This document shows, piece after piece, positions 6,555 through 55,852 of a stretch of 64,000 bases of DNA; position 1 is the stretch's first letter, and the number at the start of each line of letters is the position of its first letter. The notes below the pieces were generated by a model. It was not told the origin of the DNA and searched no databases. It saw only the letters and a list, made by a program, of their open reading frames with translations. Position numbers and translations under genes: made by a program. Origin of the DNA: Chloroflexota bacterium (GTDB lineage Bacteria; Chloroflexota; Dehalococcoidia; JACQUD01); assembly GCA_016210485.1 (NCBI GenBank), contig JACQUD010000059.1, positions 20,800-84,799 on the forward strand, written 5' to 3'.

Positions 6555-7838
6555 ATGCCCGTAGTAGCGATTGTCGGCGGGCAGTGGGGGGATGAAGGTA
6601 AGGGTAAGGTTGTAGACCTCCTGGCGGAGCGGGCTCACATGGTGGTGCGCTACTCCGGAGGCAGCAACGCCGGCCACACCATCGTCAACGACCTGGGCAC
6701 CTTCCGTCTCCACCTCATTCCTTCGGGCATCTTCCACCCCAAGGTATCCTGCCTCATCGGCAACGGAGTGGCCCTGGATCCCGCAGTTCTCTTGAGGGAG
6801 ATAGAGGAGCTGACGGGCTGTGGCGTCAAAATGGGCCGGCTCTACATCAGCGACCGCGCCCACCTAGTGATGCCATATCACACTCTCATCGACAAGCTGG
6901 AGGAGGAGGCCAGGGGCGGCGGGGCCATCGGCACCACCCTGCGAGGGATAGGCCCTGCCTACGCCGATAAGATAGCTCGCCAGGGGCTGCGCACCTGCGA
7001 CCTCTTGAGCGAGAACGATCTCCGGCAGCAGCTGCGCCCAATCCTGGAGCAGAAGAACCGGCTTCTGGCCCGGCTCTACGAGGCGAATCCCCTGGACCTG
7101 GACGAGATAGCACAGCTCTATATCGAGTATGGCCACAAGCTGGCCCCCTACATCCGGGACACTGGGGAAATGGCGCGGCAGGCCGTGGCCTCGGGCCAGC
7201 GGATAGTGCTGGAGGGCGCTCAGGGTACCATGCTAGATGTTGACTTCGGCACCTACCCTTACGTCACCTCATGCTCACCCTCAATAGGTGGCGCCCTGAC
7301 CGGGCTGGGGCTGGCCCCATCCGCCATTGCCGAGGTCGTGGCGGTGTTCAAGGCCTATACCACCCGGGTGGGCAGTGGCCCCCTGCCCACGGAGCTGGCC
7401 GATGAGACGGGCCAGCTCATCCGGGAGCATGCCCAGGAGTTCGGGGCCACCACAGGTCGGCCCCGGCGCTGCGGCTGGTTCGATGCCGTGGTTGCCCGCT
7501 ACGCCGCCCAGGTCAACGGCTGCACCGCATTCGCCATAACCCGGCTGGATGTTCTGGATATCCTGCCCAAAATTAAGGTCTGCGTGAGTTATGAGGCGGA
7601 GGGCAAAAGGCTATCCCGACCCCCCGCCTCCACAGCCCTCATGGAGAGGTGCACCCCCATCTACGAGGAGATGGAGGGCTGGCGGGAGCCTATCACGGAC
7701 ATTCGCCGCTTCGCAGACCTGCCCAGGGCCGCCCAGGCCTACGTCCGCCGTCTGGAGGAGCTAACAGGCTGCCCCGCAGCCATTATCTCGGTGGGGCCGC
7801 GTCGGGAGGAGACAATAGAGGTCAGACCTCTGTTCTGA
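6555..7838 (+). CDS. purA: Adenylosuccinate synthetase
   Basis: MPVVAIVGGQWGDEGKGKVVDLL... P-loop and GHTIV motif. RBS aggagga before ATG at 6555. The track ORF started upstream at 6495. Confidence 0.95.
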   Translation: MPVVAIVGGQWGDEGKGKVVDLLAERAHMVVRYSGGSNAGHTIVNDLGTFRLHLIPSGIFHPKVSCLIGNGVALDPAVLLREIEELTGCGVKMGRLYISDRAHLVMPYHTLIDKLEEEARGGGAIGTTLRGIGPAYADKIARQGLRTCDLLSENDLRQQLRPILEQKNRLLARLYEANPLDLDEIAQLYIEYGHKLAPYIRDTGEMARQAVASGQRIVLEGAQGTMLDVDFGTYPYVTSCSPSIGGALTGLGLAPSAIAEVVAVFKAYTTRVGSGPLPTELADETGQLIREHAQEFGATTGRPRRCGWFDAVVARYAAQVNGCTAFAITRLDVLDILPKIKVCVSYEAEGKRLSRPPASTALMERCTPIYEEMEGWREPITDIRRFADLPRAAQAYVRRLEELTGCPAAIISVGPRREETIEVRPLF

Positions 7839-12654: not shown

Positions 12655-13521
12655 TTACTTCTCTCTGCAATAGATTTCCCCTGTCTTCGAAGCAAGCGAA
12701 ACCCTGTCAAGCAGCAGCTCTTCAAGACTGTGTCTTCCCTCCAGTACCAACACGATGTCTTGACCATCCAAGAGTATGATTTTTTGTTCCTTGCCCTCTT
12801 TCAGCGCTTCAACTGCACCCGTGGAATAGCCATTAACCGAAATAAAGAACCCACTTGCGATATGGAACTTTCCTTCGACTTTACCTCGAAACTCATACAA
12901 TGGAGCCGTCGAAACAGGCTTGTCTGTCCAAGTAGCCTCAACCAAGAAGATGTTACTACCAAGCCAGAAGCTGCCATCGATCTGTTCACCCCTCGTATTG
13001 AAAGGCGCGCCCATCTTCAGCCCAAACGCACTCCAAAGCTCCTGCAAGAAATCCTGGAAGCGATAGCCTCGCTTCTGATGATCAGATTCCGCGATAATGC
13101 TTCTAAATGAATCATTCAGTTGAGCAAATTGGGCGGCCGTCTCTACTGCCTTGTCTTTGTCACTAGCCTTACCTGGCTGTCCCTTGCTTTCTGTCACCTT
13201 CTCCCGCACCAGCACATCCAAATTGGTAGCTACGCGACTGCTCTCATTCAGCCATTTATGCATTGCAACCACGCAACGTGTGTTTCCCGTGTTTACGAGG
13301 TCTCGCAACACTCCGTCGACCACAGCGCGCTTGGAAGGTCCATAAACCCATGCCAAGCCCTTCTTTTGAGAAACGGGATACCGAGCGATAATATTGGCTG
13401 GGACACCACAATCCCGGAAAAATGTTCTTAATTCACGGTGCGATAGCTGGACAAGCTGTGTGCTCAAAAATTGAATCAGTTGATATTCCTGGTCCGTGAG
13501 CATTCTAGCCTGCTTGTCCAT
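12655..13521 (-). CDS. Restriction-endonuclease-like protein: N-terminal domain of unknown function fused to C-terminal Mrr-cat (PD-(D/E)xK) nuclease domain
   Basis: C-terminal ~150 aa match the Mrr catalytic domain layout (…EQIDGSFWLGSNIFLVEATWTDKP… ILLDGQDIVLVLEG). GC is clearly lower than flanks. Start taken at MDKQ (13521) with RBS ggagagggaagg; the track ORF extends into the carA-derived repeat. Confidence 0.65.
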   Translation of the reverse strand: MDKQARMLTDQEYQLIQFLSTQLVQLSHRELRTFFRDCGVPANIIARYPVSQKKGLAWVYGPSKRAVVDGVLRDLVNTGNTRCVVAMHKWLNESSRVATNLDVLVREKVTESKGQPGKASDKDKAVETAAQFAQLNDSFRSIIAESDHQKRGYRFQDFLQELWSAFGLKMGAPFNTRGEQIDGSFWLGSNIFLVEATWTDKPVSTAPLYEFRGKVEGKFHIASGFFISVNGYSTGAVEALKEGKEQKIILLDGQDIVLVLEGRHSLEELLLDRVSLASKTGEIYCREK

Positions 13522-13532
13522 GACCTTCCCTC

Positions 13533-13585
13533 TCCACAAACCTCTGGAGCACATACACATTGTCCAGGGGGCCAGGGGAGGCCTC
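13533..13585. repeat. Direct repeat copy 1 (degenerate duplicate of the carA 3' end), left boundary of the VapBC cassette
   Basis: ctccacaaacctctggagcacatacacattgtccagggggccaggggaggcctc versus 14251..14303, about 4 mismatches in 53 bp. Confidence 0.75.
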
Positions 13586-40062: not shown

Positions 40063-40153
40063 TTACTTAGGGATATATGAACGCCGAAGGATTGGGGGGT
40101 CTTTCCATATATCTAACCCCTGGGCGATGGCCCTACCTATTTGGGAATGTTAA

Positions 40154-41668
40154 CTAGCTGTCGTTTCTTTTCTCAAAGTTTCGCAGGGTTTTATCCAGTT
40201 TATCTGAAGAAACATCCTCTTCTTCTGCATCAGCAGATTCTTTGGGTACGAACGAATCGCTGGAAACGCGCCGCAATCCGGGGTTAAGTTGCGTAGCAAA
40301 CGTAAGGCTACCGGACGATACAACTTTGCGGTATTTCCCAAGCTCACCTGTAATTACTGTAAGATGAACAGGCTTGCCTGTCTCCTTGAATTTTCTCTCC
40401 ACAATCTCAGCCACGGCATCGAACAAAGGTATTGACGGATGCTCATAACCCCATTCTGTTAGGGCAAATTTGCCTTTGACACCAATCCAAACCATGCCGT
40501 GCTGCTCGCGGCTCAGCACAGCGTGAATGTTACGTTCGGAGGACGGGTCATCCGGAAACATTGAATTGTAAACTAAGGAAATCTCTGAATAGTGCGCTGG
40601 TCTCCCGATGTGTCGAAGTACGGTATATACTTTTTGGGCCTTAGTTACGCGACTCCATACGGGTTGAGTTGCACTCTCAGCAAGAGTCTTAACGTCATTG
40701 GCCAGAAGGCACAGATTGCCTTTGGAATCTAAAAACTTCGCTATTGACTCTGGGTCAACTTCGTGCGGGTGCCATTCCCAAGGTCCGAGTTCCTGGACAT
40801 CCTTTGACGAAGCCCCTAAGATCACGATTTTTAGCTCGGGTAGCTCCGCAATGGGAATGCCCGCGCATTTGGCGGCGAATCTCCTGAGAGATGCCTGCAA
40901 AGAATCAGTGACGACAACAAGACTACCCTCTGCGCGCATAACATCACATAAGAATGCGCGGAGAAACACCCTGCGATTGTAACGCTGTATGAACCTTTTT
41001 CGCGCCTTATCCTCTAATTGGCGAACTCTCTCTCTGGTAACTCCAAGCCAACTACCAATCTCTTCAAGAGTCATTCTTCTCTCTACGCCGAAGCCTTCTC
41101 TAGCTAGCACAACTTGAACAAGTCTCCGTTCGAGTTTGGAAAGCGCTTCTCCGAGTGCTTCCTCTAACGGCTGGTTCAAGGCAGTAGCACGTACTTCAAT
41201 GTCTGCCAAGCTTTTCAGCAACTTGGTGGCATCTTCAAGGGCGAACAGTGATAAGTAGGAGAGAATATGTGCCAAGGGAAAGCAGTATTGGGCGGGTGTC
41301 CAAGCAGGGCCTACAAATCCGAAGCGCTCCCCAAAGTGCAAAGCCTCCTTCGAGAAAAATTCCCAACGACCAGTGGGGCGCAGGGAATTCATGAGACGCG
41401 TTAACTCACGTTCCGTCAGCCTTGCTTTGTGCGCCTGTGCCATTCTAATGTTCAGGCTGACAAACCACAGAAAGAGAGTTTTCTCTGGGACGAACCAATC
41501 CTCCTTCTCTCGACACAACGAAATATACCGAGAATCGTTAGCGAGAGCGCGTCGCACTGTCTCAGTGTCGATGTCTGATTGTGTGTAGTCAACAACTTCC
41601 GAAACGCTCAAGGCGTACGGCCGTGATGCGAAGGTTTCCAGAGTCTGAGCAATATGCTGCGTATCCAT
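40154..41668 (-). CDS. Sigma-70 region-4 HTH protein with C-terminal HARE-HTH-like winged helix (504 aa); island-1 component
   Basis: Central RRMTLEEIGSWLGVTRERVRQLEDKARKRF is a classic sigma-70 r4 HTH. C-terminal …KVYTVLRHIGRPAHYSEISLVYNSMFPDD…MVWIGVKGKFALTEWGY fits the HARE-HTH pattern. Low GC (~45-50%). Confidence 0.65.
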   Translation of the reverse strand: MDTQHIAQTLETFASRPYALSVSEVVDYTQSDIDTETVRRALANDSRYISLCREKEDWFVPEKTLFLWFVSLNIRMAQAHKARLTERELTRLMNSLRPTGRWEFFSKEALHFGERFGFVGPAWTPAQYCFPLAHILSYLSLFALEDATKLLKSLADIEVRATALNQPLEEALGEALSKLERRLVQVVLAREGFGVERRMTLEEIGSWLGVTRERVRQLEDKARKRFIQRYNRRVFLRAFLCDVMRAEGSLVVVTDSLQASLRRFAAKCAGIPIAELPELKIVILGASSKDVQELGPWEWHPHEVDPESIAKFLDSKGNLCLLANDVKTLAESATQPVWSRVTKAQKVYTVLRHIGRPAHYSEISLVYNSMFPDDPSSERNIHAVLSREQHGMVWIGVKGKFALTEWGYEHPSIPLFDAVAEIVERKFKETGKPVHLTVITGELGKYRKVVSSGSLTFATQLNPGLRRVSSDSFVPKESADAEEEDVSSDKLDKTLRNFEKRNDS

Positions 41669-41681
41669 AGTAGCAGATCGG

Positions 41682-42164
41682 TTAGACGGGAAAATCGCCC
41701 TTCAAGAGCCTTTCAGCAACCTTGCGCGTCCCCTTTTCGCAACGCCCCCAGTTTAATGAGGAGGGGATGAGTTCTTCTTTTACTAAATAGCGACGCAAGA
41801 TAACCACCTTCTCGAGCCATTTTCGCTTTACACCCAGGTCTCGAACTAGATGGTCGTAAAACCCGTCTATCTGAAGTGATATATGTTCTAGGTTGTCTCT
41901 TAGCCCAAACATAGTATCTCCGAGCTGCCAGATCTTTCTGGCAGGCGTAGGCGTATGATTCTTCCTAAACGCCTGTATCTCCGCTAACAACAGACGCATT
42001 GTTCTAATAGAGCGCGAATACGAATCAGCAGCGTTTTGCAAAACAGAACTTGGATCACTTTCCATTGAGATGATCCCATCAATAGAGAGAAACGCCATGA
42101 ATACTCCATCTCTAGGTTCAAAACACACAAAGGTCAGCTTGGGCGAGGTCACCTTTTCCCCCAA
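41682..42164 (-). CDS. Small partner protein (160 aa) of GHKL ATPase copy 1; paralog of 54573..55043
   Basis: Overlaps the GHKL gene by 16 nt. Alignable to the copy-2 partner (…IWQLGDTMFGLRDNLEH…LVRDLGVKRKWLEKVVILRRYL… vs …IYWLAGDEILSFLRRMDDLG…LARDVGVHESLLKRVISFRRRF…). Possible C-terminal HTH. Confidence 0.6.
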   Translation of the reverse strand: MGEKVTSPKLTFVCFEPRDGVFMAFLSIDGIISMESDPSSVLQNAADSYSRSIRTMRLLLAEIQAFRKNHTPTPARKIWQLGDTMFGLRDNLEHISLQIDGFYDHLVRDLGVKRKWLEKVVILRRYLVKEELIPSSLNWGRCEKGTRKVAERLLKGDFPV

Positions 42165-43675
42165 GCAGCCATCATTTTATCTAGGAACATAAGGTCTTGG
42201 GCCTCGCCCTCGCCAGCTAAGAATCTCTGGATGGCACTTCCTATGGCAAAAAGACTGTGGAGCCTTCTTGCTGTGCTATCGGTTCGAGCTTTCACATAGG
42301 ACGGATGCCCACTATTGATAACTACGCTATTGCCGTCCACCCAGGCTAAGTCCACTCTGGTAGGAGCTTCGGCGAAGGCGATTTTGGGACCTCGGCGTCC
42401 TGTTCGGCTGATGGGGGCAGCCGTCTCGTTTCCCTTCTCTTGATTTTGAACAAGCGCTTCGCCAGGCTCATTTCCTACATCGACAGGACTTGGGCCGTCT
42501 CCTCCGTTGCCTTCCCCGATGGGGAAAGTCTCCTCGGTCCCTTCTTGGATATCGGCTTTGATTGGGCCGCTATCGTTAGCTTGGAGAACGTCCTTCTTGG
42601 CGCGAAACCCAAAGAAATCTGCTAGCTCCGGAACATCTTTCACGAGCTTCTTAAGCTCCCGTTCTAGCTTCTCCGCTTCATCCGTACCTCCAATATCCAA
42701 AGACTGGATGCCCAGTGCTGCTAGCCAATTCTTGAACTCCACTCGAACAGGGTTATATAGACTTTCGAATTCTCTATGTTTCCCACGGCCACGGATAAAG
42801 TCCGTCTTAGCCGTGGTCAAGAAGTTAACAAATTTGGGAATCTCCACCAATCCGAAGATCCTCGGCCCAAGACTTCCCGGAAATTGATTAAAGAGGTCTG
42901 CTTTAATGACCTTGCCATAGGTGCACAGCAAAACACCACAAACATCTCCCCCGGCCGGGTACTCGGACGCAGCCAGGCCGAGAACGCCATAGCCTATCCT
43001 TTTGCCAACTCTAGTAGGGAAGAATTTCTTAACCATATCGAGGCTGAAGTCCCTCTCTATGTTACTAGGTATGACGGCCTGTCCGTTGACAGTGAATCTG
43101 AGATCGCTGGGGTAGTAGCCCATGCTCTTGTACAAGTCTAGGAACTGCATATCCAGAAGGGGAAGGTAGTGGTGGCGCAATAGTTTGATTAAGTCCTCAG
43201 ATGAAGAATACGAGACTCTTGTTTCTGCCCCAAATCTCACTTCTACCCTCGTGCCAGTTCCTGATAGATGCGTAGGTTGGATATCCTCCCATAACAGTTT
43301 TCTCTTCGACTCCAAATGCCAATTAGAACCACTAGAAAACATTTCACTGCGGGTCTCAGTGATCACCCTGTCCGAAATATTGAAGCTAATCTTTGCACCA
43401 ACACCGGCAAAGCCTATGCCTGTTCCTCGGGTCTTAAGACCAGCGGCGAAATCGTGGTACTCCTTGAACTGCGAATCGGTCATACCCTTGCCGTTATCGG
43501 CTACAACAAGGACTCTGTGATCAGTGTCATAAGAGATAGAAATACGTGATGCTCTAGCATCCAGAGCATTAGCCACGAGTTCCACAAACACTATCTCAGC
43601 TACTTCAAACGGGTACATTTCGGCTAAATCCCGAATCAGATTTTGGAAGTTCACGCTACTTTCGTGTGTACCCAT
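42149..43675 (-). CDS. GHKL (Bergerat-fold) ATPase of the MORC/MutL/Hsp90 class, copy 1 (508 aa)
   Basis: Motif I ELVANALDA, G1 DNGKGM, G2 GTGIGFAGVGAK, MutL/Hsp90-like GTGTRVEV. C-terminal acidic/Gly linker then …VVINSGHPSYVKA…. Start at internal ATG 43675 (RBS gagga), consistent with promoter TTGACT-18-TATACT at 43741..43770; the track ORF extended upstream. Confidence 0.75.
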   Translation of the reverse strand: MGTHESSVNFQNLIRDLAEMYPFEVAEIVFVELVANALDARASRISISYDTDHRVLVVADNGKGMTDSQFKEYHDFAAGLKTRGTGIGFAGVGAKISFNISDRVITETRSEMFSSGSNWHLESKRKLLWEDIQPTHLSGTGTRVEVRFGAETRVSYSSSEDLIKLLRHHYLPLLDMQFLDLYKSMGYYPSDLRFTVNGQAVIPSNIERDFSLDMVKKFFPTRVGKRIGYGVLGLAASEYPAGGDVCGVLLCTYGKVIKADLFNQFPGSLGPRIFGLVEIPKFVNFLTTAKTDFIRGRGKHREFESLYNPVRVEFKNWLAALGIQSLDIGGTDEAEKLERELKKLVKDVPELADFFGFRAKKDVLQANDSGPIKADIQEGTEETFPIGEGNGGDGPSPVDVGNEPGEALVQNQEKGNETAAPISRTGRRGPKIAFAEAPTRVDLAWVDGNSVVINSGHPSYVKARTDSTARRLHSLFAIGSAIQRFLAGEGEAQDLMFLDKMMAAWGKR

Positions 43676-43740
43676 GTTATCCTCGTTTAGATAATTCAAA
43701 ATATGACAATTTAAACCGTCGGACACCCGCTCCCGGGGCC

Positions 43741-43770
43741 AGTATAAGCCCGCCCCGAAAGCAGAGTCAA
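43741..43770 (-). promoter_or_regulatory. Candidate promoter of GHKL module 1 (TTGACT - 18 nt - TATACT, minus strand)
   Basis: Hexamers read on the minus strand about 65 nt upstream of the GHKL ATG. Confidence 0.4.
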
Positions 43771-43836
43771 TTGTTTGCGATGAGGGTTGGAATGGGATAT
43801 ATCCCAAAATGCCCTGACGGGCGCAAAATGGGGAGA

Positions 43837-48920: not shown

Positions 48921-48933
48921 CCTATCTCCAATG

Positions 48934-48968
48934 AAAAAAGACTGAGGCGAATACTAAATCGCCCTCAG
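48934..48968 (-). terminator. Intrinsic terminator inside the greA 5' leader (GraL-like leader attenuator)
   Basis: Minus strand reads CUGAGGGCGAU-UUAGUAU-UCGCCUCAG followed by UCUUUUUU, about 12 nt upstream of the greA RBS GGAGAUAGG. Confidence 0.55.
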
Positions 48969-49207
48969 TTGACCCCATTATAAGTACCTTGTGGGGTATT
49001 GTAAAGGCCTGGGTAGAGAGTCCTGGACAACATCTGCCGTTCACACTCACCTGAAATTGAGACCATAAAGCTTTGCCCCCGGCCCTAATGTTTGGAGTGG
49101 AGGCCTCAAAAGCATGGCTGTGAGGGAAGAAAAACCCCTCTGATGACTCTATATGGGACAAAAGTGATACCAGCCTGGGTGATGTCAAGAGAAAGGGAGA
49201 AGGCTTA

Positions 49208-49585
49208 ATGTATATAGAGAAACTGCTCAGGCTATCAAATATAGCTACGGAAGTGGATAAACATCAGGAGTCTGAGGTGGCAGGTAAAAAATTGCTAGTC
49301 AGCGACCCTAACCGGCAGCTTGTCATCCTGTATATTTTTATACGCTGCCCCTTCGAACGCTACGATAGTAGTAGGTGCTATAACGCAATGAACAGCCTGG
49401 AGATACCCGGTGTTGCCCCTGCCACAGCTTTGAGCGAAGCCCACGTTGCCATCATCAGGGTTCAGCTTTGTTGCCGGGCATACTCGGGAGATCAATCTAG
49501 ACAGACCTTGCTTCAAAGGCCAGCAGCTCGATTTGATCCTGATATGATGAGAGTCTTCCTTCGCTTTCTGGAGTCTCGAGGTTAA
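49208..49585 (+). CDS. Questionable 125-aa ORF in the low-GC spacer (possibly non-coding)
   Basis: Good RBS aagggagaagg-5nt-ATG, but the product is Cys/Arg-rich with no recognisable features. Confidence 0.2.
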   Translation: MYIEKLLRLSNIATEVDKHQESEVAGKKLLVSDPNRQLVILYIFIRCPFERYDSSRCYNAMNSLEIPGVAPATALSEAHVAIIRVQLCCRAYSGDQSRQTLLQRPAARFDPDMMRVFLRFLESRG

Positions 49586-49625
49586 AGCTCCCACGAGAGC
49601 ATTTCCTTGACCCTCCCCCCCTCCG

Positions 49626-50119: not shown

Positions 50120-51739
50120 ATGAGCGAAGTCCTCTACCGCAAATGGCGCCCCCAGGCCCTGGCCGAGGTGGTAGGGCAGGAGGCTGTCACTAAAACCCTG
50201 GGCAATGCCCTGGCCTCGGGCAAGGTGGCCCACGCCTACCTATTCGCTGGACCCCGGGGGACGGGGAAGACCAGCACCGCCCGCATCCTGGCTCGCGCTG
50301 TGAACTGCCTCCGGGAGGATGGCCAGAAGCCCTGCCAAGAGTGCCCCATGTGCCGAGCCTTCGCCCAGGGCCAGGCCCTGGACCTCATCGAGATCGATGC
50401 CGCCTCTAACCGGGGCATAGACGAGATTCGCGACCTCCGGGAGAAGGTGAACTTCGCCCCGAACCTGGCCCGATACAAGGTCTACATCATAGACGAGGCC
50501 CACCAGCTCACCGCCGACGCCTTCAGCGCCCTGCTCAAGACACTGGAAGAGCCTCCGCCCCATGCCATCTTCGTCCTGGCCACCACCGAGCCTCACAGGG
50601 TACCCCTCACCATTCTGTCTCGATGTCAGCGCTTCGACTTCCGCCGCATCTCCTCCTCGGCCATGGTTGCCAGGCTGGAGCAAATTTGTACCGGGGAGGG
50701 CATTCGGGCCGAGGCCGAGGCCCTGGCCCTCATCGCTCGCGCCGCCGGGGGCAGTCTTCGAGATGCCCTGAACCTGCTGGAGAAGGCGGTAACCTATTAT
50801 GGGTCTGATATCGGCCTCCGCCAGGTGCAGGAGGCCCTGGGCCTGGTGGATAGCGCCCGACTCAGGGAGCTGGCGAGCCACCTTTTGGGTCGAAACCTGG
50901 CGGCGGGCCTGGCTGCCATAAGCGACGCCGGCAACAACGGCGTAGACCTGCGCCAGCTTCAGCGCGGGCTGATGGATTATCTGCGTAACGTGCTCCTGGT
51001 CAAGGCCGGAGCGGGAGATGGGGTGGATGTGGGGCCGGAGGACAAGGCCGAGCTTATCAAGCTGGCGGCGACCACCTCGGCGGAGGAGGTCATGCGCGCC
51101 CTTCGTTTGCTGTCCCAAGAGGTGAGGGTGGAAGGACAGCCTGCCCTCTCCCTGGAGCTGGCCCTGGCTGAGCTCTGTCTATCCCGGGAGGAGCCATCGC
51201 CTCCGCCTTCCCAGCCCCGTGTGACGGCCCCCAGGGCCGAGGCCAACTTCCCTAGATCCAACCCACTCCCTCGGCCCGCCCCTGCTCCTCCCCAGCCCCG
51301 GCCCGCCCCCAAGGTCGAAGCTCCCAGAGCTGAGGCCCCCAAGCCCGCCCCCCGGGAGAGGGGCCCCATGCCCATCGAGCCGGCGGCTCGGCTGGAGTTC
51401 CTCCGGGCCAACTGGCGGCGGCTCCTAGGGGAGGCTCCTCCCCCGCTCCGCAGCAGCAATGGGGTGGCTTTCCTGCGCAGCAGCCAGCCAGTCTCTCTGG
51501 AGAACAACATCGTGGTGATAGAGTTCCGCCATGAATTCCACTGCCGGGAGCTGGAGAAGGCGGAGAATAAGCACCAAGCCGAGGAGTTTCTGAGCCAGTT
51601 GCTGGGATCGCCTTGCCGGCTCCGCTGCGTGGTCTCGCAGGCCCTGACCCAGGCGGCCTCGGACCCGCTGGTGCAAGAGGCCATGCGCTGGGGAGGCAGG
51701 ATAGTGAATGTAGAGACGGAGGGTCACGTAGATGAATAG
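50120..51739 (+). CDS. dnaX: DNA polymerase III subunit gamma/tau
   Basis: MSEVLYRKWRPQALAEVVGQEAV…GPRGTGKTS… AAA+ clamp-loader motifs and zinc module CxxC. Confidence 0.95.
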   Translation: MSEVLYRKWRPQALAEVVGQEAVTKTLGNALASGKVAHAYLFAGPRGTGKTSTARILARAVNCLREDGQKPCQECPMCRAFAQGQALDLIEIDAASNRGIDEIRDLREKVNFAPNLARYKVYIIDEAHQLTADAFSALLKTLEEPPPHAIFVLATTEPHRVPLTILSRCQRFDFRRISSSAMVARLEQICTGEGIRAEAEALALIARAAGGSLRDALNLLEKAVTYYGSDIGLRQVQEALGLVDSARLRELASHLLGRNLAAGLAAISDAGNNGVDLRQLQRGLMDYLRNVLLVKAGAGDGVDVGPEDKAELIKLAATTSAEEVMRALRLLSQEVRVEGQPALSLELALAELCLSREEPSPPPSQPRVTAPRAEANFPRSNPLPRPAPAPPQPRPAPKVEAPRAEAPKPAPRERGPMPIEPAARLEFLRANWRRLLGEAPPPLRSSNGVAFLRSSQPVSLENNIVVIEFRHEFHCRELEKAENKHQAEEFLSQLLGSPCRLRCVVSQALTQAASDPLVQEAMRWGGRIVNVETEGHVDE

Positions 51740-52037
51740 GGATATGCTGCGCCAGGCGCAGAAGCTTCAGGCCCGCCTGACCCAGGCCCAGGCCGAGCTG
51801 GAGTCGGCCACGGTGGAGGGCAGCGCCGGGGGCGGCGCCATCACCGTGACCGTGACGGGACAACAGAAGGTTACCGCGGTGAAAGTCTCGCCCGAAGCCC
51901 TGGAGGGTGCCGACAGGGAGATGCTGGAGGACCTCATCTTGGCGGCGGTGAACGATGCCCTGGATAAGGCTCGGGACCTGGCCGCCCAGCGCCTGGGGGC
52001 CATCACCGGCGGCCTCAACATACCCGGCCTGATGTAG
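51732..52037 (+). CDS. ybaB: Nucleoid-associated protein YbaB/EbfC
   Basis: MNRDMLRQAQKLQARL…VTGQQKVTAVKV… ; overlaps the dnaX stop. Confidence 0.92.
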   Translation: MNRDMLRQAQKLQARLTQAQAELESATVEGSAGGGAITVTVTGQQKVTAVKVSPEALEGADREMLEDLILAAVNDALDKARDLAAQRLGAITGGLNIPGLM

Positions 52038-52045
52038 GGGCGCAG

Positions 52046-52651
52046 GTGGAGAAGGGCGGCGCGGCACCTCCCATCGCCCGGCTCATGGCGGAGCTGACCA
52101 GGCTGCCAGGCATCGGCCCCAAGACCGCCGCCCGGCTCACCTATCACCTCCTGCGCCGACCCAAGGAGGAGGCCCAAGCCCTGGCCGAGGCCATCGTCGC
52201 CCTTAAGGAGCAGACCGTCCTCTGCTCCCGCTGCCAGAACCTATCCCAGGCCGACCCCTGCCCCCTGTGCTCTAGCCCGGAGCGGGACGGAGGCCTCATC
52301 TGCGTGGTGGAGGAGCCTCTGGATATCCTGGCCCTGGAGCGCACCGGTCGCTACAAGGGCCTGTATCACGTCCTCCACGGGGTGCTGTCGCCCCTGAACG
52401 GCGTCGGCCCCGACGACCTGAAGGTTCAGGAGCTTGTGGAGCGTTTGAAGGGGGGTGGGGTGAGGGAGGTCATCCTGGCCACCAACCCCAACGTGGAGGG
52501 CGAGACCACCGCCCTCTACCTGCACCGGCTTCTCCTGCCCCTGGGGGTGCGGCTGACCCGCCTGGCCCGGGGCCTGCCCATGGGGGCCGACCTGGAATAC
52601 GCCGACGACGTTACCCTGACCCAGGCGTTAGAGGGGAGACGGGAGTTTTAG
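52046..52651 (+). CDS. recR: Recombination protein RecR
   Basis: …LPGIGPKTAARL… HhH, Cys4 zinc finger CSRCQN…CPLC, Toprim. Confidence 0.95.
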   Translation: MEKGGAAPPIARLMAELTRLPGIGPKTAARLTYHLLRRPKEEAQALAEAIVALKEQTVLCSRCQNLSQADPCPLCSSPERDGGLICVVEEPLDILALERTGRYKGLYHVLHGVLSPLNGVGPDDLKVQELVERLKGGGVREVILATNPNVEGETTALYLHRLLLPLGVRLTRLARGLPMGADLEYADDVTLTQALEGRREF

Positions 52652-52693
52652 GAGAAGAAGTCTCGGATGTTGGTCGGAAGAGTCTCACGCCCC

Positions 52694-52921
52694 TTATTTT
52701 AACCTGACGAAGACCTTCTCCCCTTTGGTCATAACTCGAATTTCCTTGCCCAAATTCTTAGCAACCTTGCGATAGAGATGGGATACTTTTCTCGGGGTAT
52801 CTCGGCCCGTAGGTGTTACCTCTATGGCATTATCAGAGCTTAACTGGTTAAGAAATTGTTCTGCTTCACGCTCTCCCGGTCTCTTCTTTAGCTCAGAAAG
52901 AGCAACGATACGTGTCCTCAT
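52694..52921 (-). CDS. Small basic hypothetical protein (75 aa), divergent from GHKL module 2
   Basis: ATG at 52921 with strong RBS aggagg-5nt. Lys/Arg-rich; possible DNA-binding regulator. Low GC. Confidence 0.5.
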   Translation of the reverse strand: MRTRIVALSELKKRPGEREAEQFLNQLSSDNAIEVTPTGRDTPRKVSHLYRKVAKNLGKEIRVMTKGEKVFVRLK

Positions 52922-52934
52922 TGTGTCCTCCTAT

Positions 52935-52963
52935 TTGACATTCGTATGTCTCCATGTTAGCAT
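52935..52963 (+). promoter_or_regulatory. Candidate promoter of GHKL module 2 (TTGACA - 17 nt - TAGCAT)
   Basis: Hexamers read directly, about 90 nt upstream of ATG 53053. Confidence 0.4.
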
Positions 52964-53052
52964 CTTTTTTGTAAGTAATCAAGGGTATTTTGGAGCTTAT
53001 AGAGATAAGCTTAAGGGCATTGCCCATAGAGGTAGTTGAGTGTAGGTGTCTT

Positions 53053-54585
53053 ATGGGTGAAACTCGGGTAAACCTGAAGCATCTTCTGGAGAACTTAAGG
53101 GACTCATATCCATTGCCTTTAGAAGAGGCCATCGTTACCGAGTTAGTAGCTAATGCCCTTGATTCCAAAGCTTCGAGGATTGGCTTTACTGTAGATTCAG
53201 GTGAGTGCTCATTGTCAATTGTGGATAATGGCGCGGGGATGAAACGCGAAGAGTTCGAGAAGTATCACGATATTGCTGAGACCACTAAGGAAAAAGGACG
53301 AGGGATAGGATTTGCCGGCCAGGGTGCCAAGTTGTCTTTGTTGGCAGTAAGGTCGGTGCAGACGGAAACGAAGACAAGTGAGGGGTCCTTTTCCACTGCG
53401 TGGCATCTTGAAGATGACTATCATGCCCCTTGGGATTTTATTCCTCCTTTGGGCCTTGTTGGTACACAGACAGGGACAGCAATCAAAGTTCTTCTGAGAG
53501 AAAAACAAAGCGATCTGGCAAATTCGACTTTCGTGATTAGGACTATTCAGAAATGGTTTGCTTCCCTCTTAGAAAAGGATTTCATGCCCAAAGCCCTTAG
53601 AGAAGTGTACCCAAGCGGAGTCTTTTTCGGCGTAAATGGGAGGATGGTGGAGCTATCCCAAAGTTCGGTGTTTCATGACTTTGCCACTGGCTATAAGCTC
53701 AGGCCTTTTGAAGTGCGACTTAAAAGGAAGCAGGTAGGAATTGGATTCCTTGGAAGAAGTATCCGCTCTTTGAAAGAGGAGGAAAGGGGCCTGGCGATAT
53801 CTGTGTTGGGTAAGGTCGTAAAGCGGGGTTGGGAGTGGGTGGATGTTTCTCCGAAAGACCGCAAGTTCATATGGGGCATGGTTGAAGTCCCCGCTCTCTC
53901 CACAATTCTTGCGACAAACAAATGCGACTTCTTGTCCGACGTGTCGAGCAAGACAAAGTATTACCAGTATCGCAAGGCTATTGTTGTGGCCATACAGCCC
54001 ATCCTACGTGCCATGGGCGAGTTGCCTGAGGCTGAGCCTGAAGCGCTACCGCAAGCGTTGGCAAAAGAAATCCGAATGGTCCTTGAGGAACTTCTGCCCG
54101 ATTTCCCTGAGCTGGAACCACTTTTGGATAAGCAGGGACGAGGGGAAAAGGTTAGCACGGTTCTGCCCGACCCTGCTGCCGATCCGGCAGGGGGCGTGGA
54201 GCAAGGGGTGGCTAGTGTAACTGGAGACCAGGGAGGGGTTGGGCAAGGAGCGGGAGTTGATGTTGGGCCAGGCACGGGGCCTGGTGAAAGGATTTCCCCA
54301 GAAGCTCCGCTTACAGAACCAGGTAGGCAGCATGAGGGAAGGCGCAGGCTTCCTGGGCTTATGATCCGCTATGAAGACAAACTAGAGGAAGAACTAGGGC
54401 GATTGGAAGGAATTACCATATTCATAAATAAGGGGCATCCTGCTTACAGAAAAGTTGCCGACTCAAAAAGCCTGGAGAATTACCATACTTTTCTAACGAT
54501 AGCTTGGGTGTTGTCAAAAAACCTTGCTGATGGAAGGTCTCCCCAGGGATTCATAAATCAGTTCCTTAGGATTTGGGGGGGTTAA
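53053..54585 (+). CDS. GHKL (Bergerat-fold) ATPase of the MORC/MutL/Hsp90 class, copy 2 (paralog of 42149..43675)
   Basis: ELVANALDS, DNGAGM, GRGIGFAGQGAK, GTAIKV. Gly/Pro/acidic linker then …ITIFINKGHPAYRKV…. Collinear with copy 1 over the full length at roughly 25-30% identity by eye. Alternative TTG start at 52990. Confidence 0.75.
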   Translation: MGETRVNLKHLLENLRDSYPLPLEEAIVTELVANALDSKASRIGFTVDSGECSLSIVDNGAGMKREEFEKYHDIAETTKEKGRGIGFAGQGAKLSLLAVRSVQTETKTSEGSFSTAWHLEDDYHAPWDFIPPLGLVGTQTGTAIKVLLREKQSDLANSTFVIRTIQKWFASLLEKDFMPKALREVYPSGVFFGVNGRMVELSQSSVFHDFATGYKLRPFEVRLKRKQVGIGFLGRSIRSLKEEERGLAISVLGKVVKRGWEWVDVSPKDRKFIWGMVEVPALSTILATNKCDFLSDVSSKTKYYQYRKAIVVAIQPILRAMGELPEAEPEALPQALAKEIRMVLEELLPDFPELEPLLDKQGRGEKVSTVLPDPAADPAGGVEQGVASVTGDQGGVGQGAGVDVGPGTGPGERISPEAPLTEPGRQHEGRRRLPGLMIRYEDKLEEELGRLEGITIFINKGHPAYRKVADSKSLENYHTFLTIAWVLSKNLADGRSPQGFINQFLRIWGG

Positions 54586-55043
54586 TCATGGGGGATAAGT
54601 TTCCGCTCATCGTATCGCCAGAAAAAGATTCCAAGGGTGAGTTCAAGGTTGCAACCTCTTTTCAAACTCTGCTGGACGCATCTCGAAGCGTGCGCAAGGA
54701 CTTAGAATATGTTGAACAAGACTATGCGCTTTTGATAAGTAACCTTCGCTGTTTGCTCATTAGAAGTGGCACGAGTGGAAGGCGAGACCCGCGTATTTAC
54801 TGGCTTGCCGGAGATGAAATATTAAGCTTCCTTCGACGTATGGATGATTTGGGCTTTTTTCTACATCAACAGAATAAAACGCTGGCAAGAGATGTGGGAG
54901 TACATGAAAGCTTGCTCAAAAGGGTTATCTCATTTCGCAGGCGCTTTCCGCTTCTTTCTCAGGTTGACCCTTCTATCTTGTGGACTAGATACAGGAGCAA
55001 TGCAGTCCCGCTACCCGGGAGCGAAAAAGATCAAGGTGTTTAG
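54573..55043 (+). CDS. Small partner protein (156 aa) of GHKL ATPase copy 2; paralog of 41682..42164
   Basis: Overlaps the GHKL gene by 13 nt. Alignable to the copy-1 partner. Ends at the recO start. Confidence 0.6.
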   Translation: MGGLIMGDKFPLIVSPEKDSKGEFKVATSFQTLLDASRSVRKDLEYVEQDYALLISNLRCLLIRSGTSGRRDPRIYWLAGDEILSFLRRMDDLGFFLHQQNKTLARDVGVHESLLKRVISFRRRFPLLSQVDPSILWTRYRSNAVPLPGSEKDQGV

Positions 55044-55852
55044 TGCCCCGCCCCCGCACCTATAAGACCGAGGCCATCGTGCTGAAGGCCGCCCGCCTGG
55101 GGGAGGCCGACAGGCTCCTCACTATGTTCACCCCCTCCCTGGGCAAGGTGCGGGCCGTGGCCCGGGGCGCCCTCCGCCCCAAAAGTAAGCTGGCCGGCCA
55201 CCTGGAGCCTTTCACCCGCGCTTCCCTCATGCTGGCCCAGGGCCGCACCCTGGACGTGGTCGCCGGCGCCCAGGCCCTGGAGGCCTTCCCCACACTCCGC
55301 GCCGACCTGGAGCGGACGGGCCTGGCCTTCTACCTGGCCGAGCTGGTGGACCGCTTCACTGCCGAGGGCCAGGAGAGCTATCCCATATACGCTTTGCTTC
55401 TGGAGGCCCTGGGCTGGCTGGACAAGGCTCAGAAGGTGGGCCTGGCCCGCCCAGCCTTCGAGCTTCAAGTGCTCCGGCTCTCGGGGCATGGCCCCCAGCT
55501 ATCCCATTGCCTGAAGTGCCGAGCCGAGATAAAGGGCGCTGCCGCCTTCTCGTCGGCCTCCGGCGGGGCGCTCTGCCCTATCTGTGAGAGAGATGCCCCC
55601 GATGCCCGCCCCCTCTCCATCGCCGCTCGCCGGGCCATGGTCTATCTCCAGGGCAGCGCCTTCTCCCGGGGGGCCAGGGTCAAGGTGCCCACAGCAGTGG
55701 AGCGGGAGATGGAGGGGCTGCTCCAGGGATACATAGCCTACGTGCTGGAGCAGAGCGTCAAATCGGCGATCTTTTTGGAGCGGCTGAGGCGGGAGGACGT
55801 CAGCGCTGCCGCTGCACCGAATAGTCGGCCATATCCAGAAGGGCCTGCCTGA
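55043..55852 (+). CDS. recO: DNA repair protein RecO
   Basis: (GTG) PRPRTYKTEAIVLKAARLGEADRLLTMFTPSLGKVRAVARG… OB-fold plus zinc-binding CLKC…CPIC. Confidence 0.88.
   Translation: MPRPRTYKTEAIVLKAARLGEADRLLTMFTPSLGKVRAVARGALRPKSKLAGHLEPFTRASLMLAQGRTLDVVAGAQALEAFPTLRADLERTGLAFYLAELVDRFTAEGQESYPIYALLLEALGWLDKAQKVGLARPAFELQVLRLSGHGPQLSHCLKCRAEIKGAAAFSSASGGALCPICERDAPDARPLSIAARRAMVYLQGSAFSRGARVKVPTAVEREMEGLLQGYIAYVLEQSVKSAIFLERLRREDVSAAAAPNSRPYPEGPA

Follow-up and report, generated by a model that had tools for sequence, protein, structure and literature searches.

Between the recombination genes recR and recO of an uncultured Chloroflexota bacterium lies a 2391-nucleotide (nt) islet of low G+C content (GC) that encodes a GHKL ATPase and, directly after it, a small basic partner protein. 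All positions refer to the 64,000-nt stretch of contig JACQUD010000059.1 that was analysed (the window), in which this islet (Island 2) occupies 52652-55042. Comparison with related genomes indicates that the islet is a recently acquired insertion into an ancestral recR-recO spacer of about 13-55 nt, and the genes that it carries are likely a candidate defence module of the paraMORC type. We consider it fairly probable, if far from assured, that the complete picture holds, namely a recently acquired paraMORC-type candidate module against phages or other mobile DNA, in which the ATPase would act as a DNA clamp and the insertion would have captured the expression of recO.

The islet between recR and recO

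Gene identities were assigned from a six-frame list of open reading frames (ORFs) together with Pfam matches (Table 1). They agree with an earlier note, made from the letters alone, which had listed dnaX-ybaB-recR, a divergent ORF of 75 amino acids (aa), the GHKL ATPase, its partner, and recO, and the flanking genes are backed by Pfam. The segment between recR and recO had also been described there as low in GC, and the quantitative analysis bears this out. In a composition scan with segments of 2391 nt moved in 50-nt steps across the 64 kb, the GC of the islet (0.481) was the minimum of all segments of this size (mean 0.604, standard deviation (sd) 0.036; about −3.4 sd), and the only other stretch of the window with a GC below 0.52 was at 39.5-44.2 kb. 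The GC at third codon positions (GC3) was 0.45-0.49 in the three islet ORFs versus 0.79-0.88 in dnaX, recR, and recO. The boundaries are sharp: the GC of 60-nt bins steps down at 52652 (0.58-0.82 to 0.48) and up again at 55043 (0.50 to 0.73), and at this resolution the two steps coincide with the recR stop and the recO start.

Table 1. Features of the recR-recO locus (Island 2) and of Island 1, in window positions.
Feature	Positions	Strand	Remarks
dnaX	50120-51739	+	Pfam DnaX; GC3 0.793
ybaB	51732-52037	+	Pfam YbaB
recR, host left flank, last gene of ybeY-dnaX-ybaB-recR	52046-52651	+	Pfam Toprim_4, RecR_HhH, RecR_ZnF, RecR_C; GC 0.69, GC3 0.881
Spacer of 42 nt between the ends of recR and of the convergent 75-aa gene, at the left border of the islet	52652-52693		GC falls to 0.48 here
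Gene of the 75-aa basic protein	52694-52921	-	GC3 0.447
Divergent intergenic region, 131 nt	52922-53052		Promoter-like site and ribosome-binding site of the GHKL gene
GHKL ATPase gene, 510 aa	53053-54585	+	GC3 0.491
Partner gene, 151 aa	54588-55043	+	GC3 0.447
recO, host right flank	55043-55852	+	Pfam RecO_N, RecO_C, match from residue 6; GC 0.685, GC3 0.830
Island 1, diverged second copy, low-GC islet 40063-43836 with GC 0.49	genes 40154-43807	-	GC 0.47-0.49
Island 1 GHKL gene	42149-43807	-	29% identity to the Island 2 ATPase over the full length, E 2e-53
Island 1 partner gene	41682-42164	-	22% identity to the Island 2 partner, E 3e-5
Island 1 third gene, 504 aa, with a sigma-70 region-4 helix-turn-helix	40154-41668	-	Sigma70_r4 E 1e-9

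Relatives of RecO were sought in one genome per species (185,579 species) and in metagenomes of the Joint Genome Institute (JGI). The closest ones found share only 43-48% identity with the RecO of the window, the best matches of the scans reaching 46-48%, and an exact look-up of RecR for closer relatives gave no match. In five of the relatives (L006, L008, L079, L095, and L128) recR is directly upstream of recO with a gap of about 13-55 nt; at the sequence level, the spacer measures 13 nt in L079, 31 nt in L006, and 51 nt in L008. The genes dnaX and ybaB are also upstream in L008 and L079, and L079 has ybeY as well, like the window. These short gaps argue that the 2.39 kb found here are an insertion. 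The RecO proteins of the relatives start with ATG and have the N-terminus MPxPKTYKTEAIVLK or MTTTPKTYKTEAIVL, and the N-terminus in the window, MPRPRTYKTEAIVLK, read as (GTG)PRPRTYKTEAIVLK, aligns with the first of these. Since the N-termini align, host sequence resumes at, or no more than 1-2 bases from, the recO start codon.

The synteny comparison of the recR-recO interval thus points the same way as the earlier note, which had proposed an accessory insertion: the relatives in which recR and recO are adjacent have no module, the islet has foreign GC, and the RecO N-terminus is shared. The accompanying statement that recR and recO are conserved neighbours held for the clade nearest this organism only. 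Among the 123 loci with at least 1.5 kb of sequence upstream of recO, recR was found upstream in seven, and in the other 116, mostly from Anaerolineae, recO is placed elsewhere and has no recR before it. Modules homologous to this one match the GC of their own hosts elsewhere (0.37-0.63), while the deficit here amounts to 12-20 points; this mismatch, set against the host-like GC in other hosts, points to a recent arrival.

As for traces of the insertion event, the islet is not flanked by direct or inverted repeats longer than chance would give, no tRNA gene was found near it, no Rfam family was matched within 38-57 kb, and no integrase or transposase ORF was found at or near it. In a metagenomic relative (L096, 211-487), the recR-recO spacer measures about 280 nt and contains a 64-aa ORF (271-465), which suggests that more than one lineage tolerates small insertions at this site. 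A 2.9-kb recR-recO gap in an Anaerolineae metagenome-assembled genome (L064, 1607-4525) was considered as a second islet and rejected: it contains argS and two genes for CBS-domain proteins, all with the GC of the host, and is a rearrangement of housekeeping genes.

The GHKL ATPase and its partner

The ATPase gene most likely starts at ATG 53053, as its homologues are about 510 aa long and begin with MGETRVNLKH, and the sequence AGGTG (53044-53048) is located 4 nt upstream. A start at TTG 52990 was abandoned for the same reasons. Pfam matched HATPase_c_3 (E 7e-12) and HATPase_c (E 3e-8), with the match confined to the first ~140 residues. All Bergerat-fold motifs of the GHKL superfamily are present, namely motif I (ExxxNxxD), II (DxGxG), III (GxxGxG), and IV (GT). 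In an alignment of 62 homologues, out of at least 330 that were found, residues E30, N34, D37, D58, G60, G84, G86, G89, and G91 are invariant and G62 and T142 nearly so, and K254, the S5 lysine in the second domain, is invariant or nearly so. The GHKL domain and the S5 transducer together span approximately residues 1-330 and are followed by a helical stretch, a Gly/Pro/Glu-rich segment at about 360-440, and a conserved C-terminal domain of about 75 aa, which carries the motif N459..H462-P-A, i.e., N..HPA[YF], and an invariant tryptophan and for which no relative was found by sequence in Pfam or the PDB. The Gly/Pro/Glu-rich segment varies in length among the homologues, with the 510-residue query being spread over 704 alignment columns. 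Its composition suggests disorder, and we read it as a flexible linker. AlphaFold2 draws long beta-hairpins there, in conflict with this reading; we regard these strands as uncertain, as they could be artefactual or form an unusual beta-arm.

The AlphaFold2 model of the ATPase had a predicted local distance difference test score (pLDDT) of 88.8. Its best superpositions were with MORC3 (21.3), MORC2 (20.4), TRAP1 (19.5), SMCHD1 (18.9), and MutL (17.9), in all five cases over about 280 residues covering the GHKL domain and the S5 transducer. Judged by its motifs and its predicted structure, the 510-aa protein is a MORC/MutL-type GHKL+S5 ATPase with intact ATPase motifs.

The partner gene most likely starts at ATG 54588. 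Its 151-aa product has an isoelectric point (pI) of 9.6 and 414 homologues, none of which has a Pfam domain or an informative name. The model (pLDDT 89.9) consists of an N-terminal beta-hairpin, a long helical hairpin, and a helix-turn-helix (HTH) at residues 95-119 that ends in FRRRF. Fold searches with this model gave nothing significant; ParB-family HTH domains were weakly at the top of both lists, with Spo0J and ParB appearing in both and KorB, SopB, and VirB in the Foldseek list. According to the model, the partner thus carries a probable HTH, and a role in DNA binding is a reasonable inference.

Genomic neighbourhoods and spread of the pair

The partner gene directly follows the ATPase gene in loci L001, L004, L086, L087, and L088, with a 4-nt overlap in four of the five, and likewise in a three-gene subtype to which Island 1 belongs (see below). 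Known defence or toxin-antitoxin genes are found at most 5 kb away in seven of eight independent contexts. In L086, the type I genes hsdS-hsdR end 31 nt before the ATPase gene on the same strand, with MNT/HepT and resolvase genes nearby, and in L088 a 1084-aa type IIG methylase-endonuclease gene ends 24 nt before it, also on the same strand. The other neighbours are MNT/HEPN in L001; VapBC, HicA, and DUF3800 in L004; and DUF433/DUF5615, CopG, and an NB-ARC/TPR (STAND) protein in L089. The three-gene subtype adjoins type I restriction-modification genes with GmrSD, plus AbiE, in L090 and type ISP restriction-modification genes and a PLD-SNF2 protein in L093. The source names of the homologues include Chloroflexi, Thermodesulforhabdaceae, Omnitrophica, Brocadiia, and at least one archaeon (Thermoproteota). 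As far as gene order and sequence can tell, the GHKL-partner pair is a horizontally mobile, conserved unit of defence-type neighbourhoods. In L086, a 205-aa Mrr_N winged-helix protein is encoded directly after the partner (7135-7752) and may be a third component there; it was rejected as a counterpart of the 504-aa protein of Island 1, to which it has no similarity.

These neighbourhoods would also suit a subunit with an accessory or regulatory role in restriction-modification, one that remodels DNA or the enzyme complex (PMC2292703), of which the copy in the window would be an orphan with little function. The same-strand placement closely behind hsdR and the type IIG gene, the type I and type ISP neighbours of the three-gene subtype, and the published link between paraMORC families and restriction-modification (PMC2292703) all agree with such a role. 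However, the type of restriction-modification differs from locus to locus, none lies near the pair in the window, L087, L001, or L004, and the fully conserved ATPase motifs of the window copy do not resemble those of a decaying orphan. We therefore hold this explanation to be unlikely, if still worth keeping in view. If the module were an ordinary restriction-modification accessory, the finding would reduce to a well-documented horizontal insertion, and horizontal insertion in itself is ordinary.

Searches by tblastn (E <= 1e-10) in 72,556 plasmids (PLSDB) and 50,697 phage records (INPHARED) gave no homologue of the module, and IMG/VR yielded three weak matches to the GHKL domain only, two of them in giant-virus bins. 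A phage or plasmid origin of the module was rejected on these grounds, as the IMG/VR matches comprise the bare GHKL fold. The same searches bear on the idea that the islet is the remnant of a mobile element, whose ParB-like partner and ATPase would have served the maintenance or partition of that element rather than host defence. The foreign GC, the weak resemblance of the partner to the ParB family, and the resolvase gene near the L086 module are in its favour, but it has to account for the missing plasmid and phage homologues, for an islet of only 2.4 kb, and for the lack of an integrase, a transposase, terminal repeats, and a tRNA gene. We give it very little probability.

The 75-aa gene and the divergent intergenic region

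The 75-aa protein has a pI of 10.5 and its gene a strong ribosome-binding site (AGGAGGA, then 4 nt, then ATG), in keeping with the earlier description of a basic divergent protein. A search of 1.84 billion representative proteins returned 13 homologues (E 6e-15 to 5e-4), which are mostly full-length proteins of 74-87 aa; the ORF is therefore a real but rare gene. No known domain was found in it by Pfam, PHROG, or PADLOC matches, and the gene is absent beside six other GHKL-partner loci. Of four contexts, two have the gene or its homologue divergent from a GHKL gene, namely the window and L179. In the latter (546-2315), an 81-aa homologue with 48% identity is divergent from the gene of a distant 490-aa HATPase_c_3 protein, which has a C-terminal VNxxFPAF motif in common with the window ATPase and no partner gene downstream; this arrangement hints at a link between the 75-aa family and GHKL genes. 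Going by these gene contexts, the 75-aa protein is not supported as a conserved member of the module and is possibly a regulator or separate cargo.

The promoter-like sequence TTGACA-17-TAGCAT reported in the earlier note is present on the + strand at 52935-52963, with a TG extension, and is the sole match within 52400-55400. The count as such is not significant, as shuffled sequence yields 1.6 matches on average versus the one found. What remains suggestive is the position of the site, in the divergent region and reading into the ATPase operon. No terminator-like site was predicted within 52400-55400, and the RNA fold of the recR-proximal spacer (52652-52693) was no better than that of shuffled sequences (z −0.19).

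The junction with recO

The stop codon of the partner gene (TAG, 55041-55043) and the GTG start of recO (55043-55045) overlap by one base in the sequence TAGTG, so the description of the two as abutting was accurate. AAGGTG precedes the recO GTG by 4 nt, in the same arrangement as before the ATPase gene. In the relatives, recO is presumably part of the recR operon, following a short spacer, while in the window 2.4 kb of foreign DNA, including the convergent 75-aa gene, separate it from recR, and its start is now GTG. Because there is no predicted terminator, the sole promoter-like site reads into the ATPase operon, and the junction combines TAGTG with AAGGTG, co-transcription of recO with the module is the simplest reading. 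Read-through or coupling into recO, as suggested in the earlier note, is thus plausible: recO is probably co-transcribed with the module and possibly also translationally coupled to it.

The same note had placed the ATPase system in a DNA-repair context, and this link was not borne out. Neither recR nor recO was found in any of the other module loci examined, which adjoin restriction-modification, Abi, toxin-antitoxin, or housekeeping genes, and for this reason the setting is no pointer to a repair function. From gene order, the neighbourhood of recombination genes seems incidental, an accident of the insertion site. Recruitment of the module into recombinational repair, where it would cooperate with RecR and RecO, perhaps in the manner of MutL, would explain the position between the two genes and against the recO start as well as the MutL-like fold. 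Against it are the relatives with recR-recO and no module, the absence of both genes from the other module loci, the foreign GC, and a score of 34 bits where the MutL cut-off is 180, and we attach hardly any probability to it.

Proposed mode of action and its weight

As a working hypothesis, we propose a clamp-and-load mechanism for the paraMORC-type candidate module. By analogy with related ATPases, a dimer would be held together by the conserved C-terminal domain, and the N-terminal GHKL+S5 halves would close upon ATP binding, as in MutL, MORC, and Hsp90. The closed dimer would form a ring or clamp able to hold DNA, and the basic HTH partner would select the DNA or load it. The complex might then trap and compact invading DNA alone, or assist neighbouring restriction enzymes where these are present; entrapment, compaction, or such assistance is proposed because no nuclease or effector domain is detectable. 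As a side effect of the insertion, recO would be left without its native upstream region and be expressed with the module.

Several points weigh against this reading. Comparisons with Pfam, PADLOC, NCBIfam, and the PDB revealed neither a nuclease nor any other effector domain in the two proteins, and PADLOC-DB v2, which includes Tiamat TmtA, Mza, and MADS, gave no full-length match. The dimerisation by the C-terminal domain is drawn from analogy, and AlphaFold2 renders residues ~359-441 as four long beta-strands (hairpins) with a pLDDT of mostly 83-91. Locus L089 lacks the partner and has an unrelated 87-aa gene in its place, and L087 has housekeeping genes only. The argument for defence is one of guilt by association, based on only about eight neighbourhoods. 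Lastly, the nearest relatives, at 43-48% RecO identity, are too distant for dating the insertion or naming the donor.

In a bolder version of the proposal, the pair would be a self-sufficient, nuclease-free defence in which the partner loads a MORC-like clamp and invading DNA is compacted or silenced instead of cut, with two versions coexisting in the genome and one of them holding the expression of recO. We regard this version as rather improbable. Were it true, nuclease-free silencing would be a prokaryotic counterpart of the MORC-mediated silencing of transposons in eukaryotes, and the capture of recO would tie the loss of the islet to a loss of recombinational repair. Apart from this, the locus is a clean case of a foreign islet placed to the base pair before a housekeeping repair gene, which probably depends on the islet for its expression; such dependence would offer a simple way in which accessory DNA might come to resist loss.

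Island 1 and other low-GC patches

The window contains a diverged second copy of the module, Island 1 (Table 1), flanked by genes for an HI0933-like flavoprotein and a DUF1786 protein. Its trio of genes recurs in L090-L093, whose third protein shares 45% identity with that of the window. The parallel divergence of the two paralogous pairs (29% identity for the ATPases and 22% for the partners) fits co-evolving partners, as far as sequence comparison goes. Against PADLOC, Island 1 matched MzaA (E 2e-8, in the HTH part only), mad1 (E 0.0012, weak), and TmtA (E 3e-7, in the N-terminal GHKL region only).

Two further patches of low GC were seen. At 12655-13560 on the minus strand, a 301-aa Mrr_cat endonuclease protein is encoded at a GC of ~0.50 versus 0.60-0.66 around it, and this is probably another small defence islet; small islets of defence type are thus dispersed among the core genes of this genome. 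The greA-ybeY gap of about 700 nt (~48921-49625) has a GC of 0.47-0.51, with Pfam matching none of its ORFs and Rfam giving no hit.

Comparison with known systems

No published description of the ATPase-partner pair was found in full-text literature searches, and the GHKL domain was all that PADLOC, NCBIfam, PHROGs, and Pfam recognised in the Island 2 proteins. The matches of the ATPase to PADLOC models were weak and confined to the GHKL N-terminus (TmtA, E 0.009; REase_II, E 0.007), and neither the partner nor the 75-aa protein had a PADLOC match. Mza (Gao et al. 2020, as in PADLOC) resembles Island 1 only, through the sigma-70 region-4 part of MzaA (E 2e-8); it was rejected, as the match covers ~70 HTH residues, no other Mza component is present, and Island 2 has no such gene. 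VcSduA (GHKL-Shedu) was likewise considered and rejected.

Pairs of a GHKL protein and a small partner are also known from signalling. HEF_HK (PF19191) and Response_reg_2 (PF19192) form pairs linked to restriction-modification (bioRxiv 10.1101/2020.08.26.268516) and share with the module the close linkage of a HATPase_c_3 gene to that of a small partner, with many restriction-modification genes nearby. They were rejected as a match, since both families are unmatched at E <= 0.1 and the model of the partner is a helical HTH and not receiver-like. CapK/CapS, encoded upstream of an immune operon, combines an anti-sigma-factor-type kinase with a repressor that has a STAS domain (PMC13373217); the pair described here does not belong to it, because the fold class differs. 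With these precedents, a GHKL ATPase beside a small basic HTH-like protein, and recO directly downstream, could be read as a pair for signalling or transcription control, in which the GHKL protein would be a kinase that phosphorylates a small DNA-binding repressor and so controls its neighbours, recO included. Given the mismatch with both precedents, we assign this reading little probability.

The likeness to MutL lies in the layout of an N-terminal ATPase, a variable low-complexity segment, and a conserved C-terminal domain. In contrast to MutL, the ATPase scores 34.3 bits against TIGR00585, where the cut-off is 180, and over the N-terminal 46 residues only, so it falls outside that family; its C-terminal domain matches no dimerisation or endonuclease domain of MutL, and the genes are foreign and found in defence-type neighbourhoods. 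As regards the site, defence hotspots flanked by core genes have been described (e.g., PMC10250203, PMC10121019). The window resembles these in having small defence-type cargo between housekeeping genes with no recognisable mobility gene, at three low-GC patches, and differs in that there is one occupied recR-recO site, with relatives varying only by the 64-aa ORF of L096 and the housekeeping genes of L064.

The closest parallel is provided by the MORC and paraMORC ATPases, GHKL families that have been linked to restriction-modification, with a proposed accessory role (Iyer, Abhiman & Aravind 2008, PMC2292703). The GHKL domain with an S5-fold transducer that is typical of MORC proteins is present. 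The MORC S5 motif GhXhhpXXRhl (PMC2292703) is not: by eye, the corresponding stretch reads G-L-A-I-S-V-L-G-K254-V-V, with an invariant lysine in place of the arginine and misfits at the polar and hydrophobic positions as well. Among the paraMORC families, ExxxH in S5 marks family 2, a RecB-like nuclease family 3, a TIR domain family 4, and an HxH C-terminal domain family 5 (PMC2292703). No nuclease or TIR domain was detected in the ATPase, which argues against paraMORC3 and paraMORC4. A conserved extension lies beyond S5, of the kind described for paraMORC1. The module differs from paraMORC systems in that helicase or nuclease partners are absent and its constant partner is a ~150-aa HTH protein that has no Pfam domain. 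It agrees with them in the GHKL+S5 architecture, the intact ATP-binding motifs, the patchy spread over bacteria and archaea, and the restriction-modification and Abi neighbours; a GHKL+S5 protein that lacks the MORC motif, is laterally mobile, and lies in neighbourhoods of the restriction-modification type corresponds to paraMORC in the general sense. The pair is a compact and widespread two-gene version outside PADLOC, with at least 330 homologues of the ATPase and 414 of the partner. A part in conflicts with foreign DNA has been predicted for prokaryotic MORC-like ATPases since 2008, and the present locus is a tractable candidate for learning what such ATPases do when no nuclease or helicase is attached to them.

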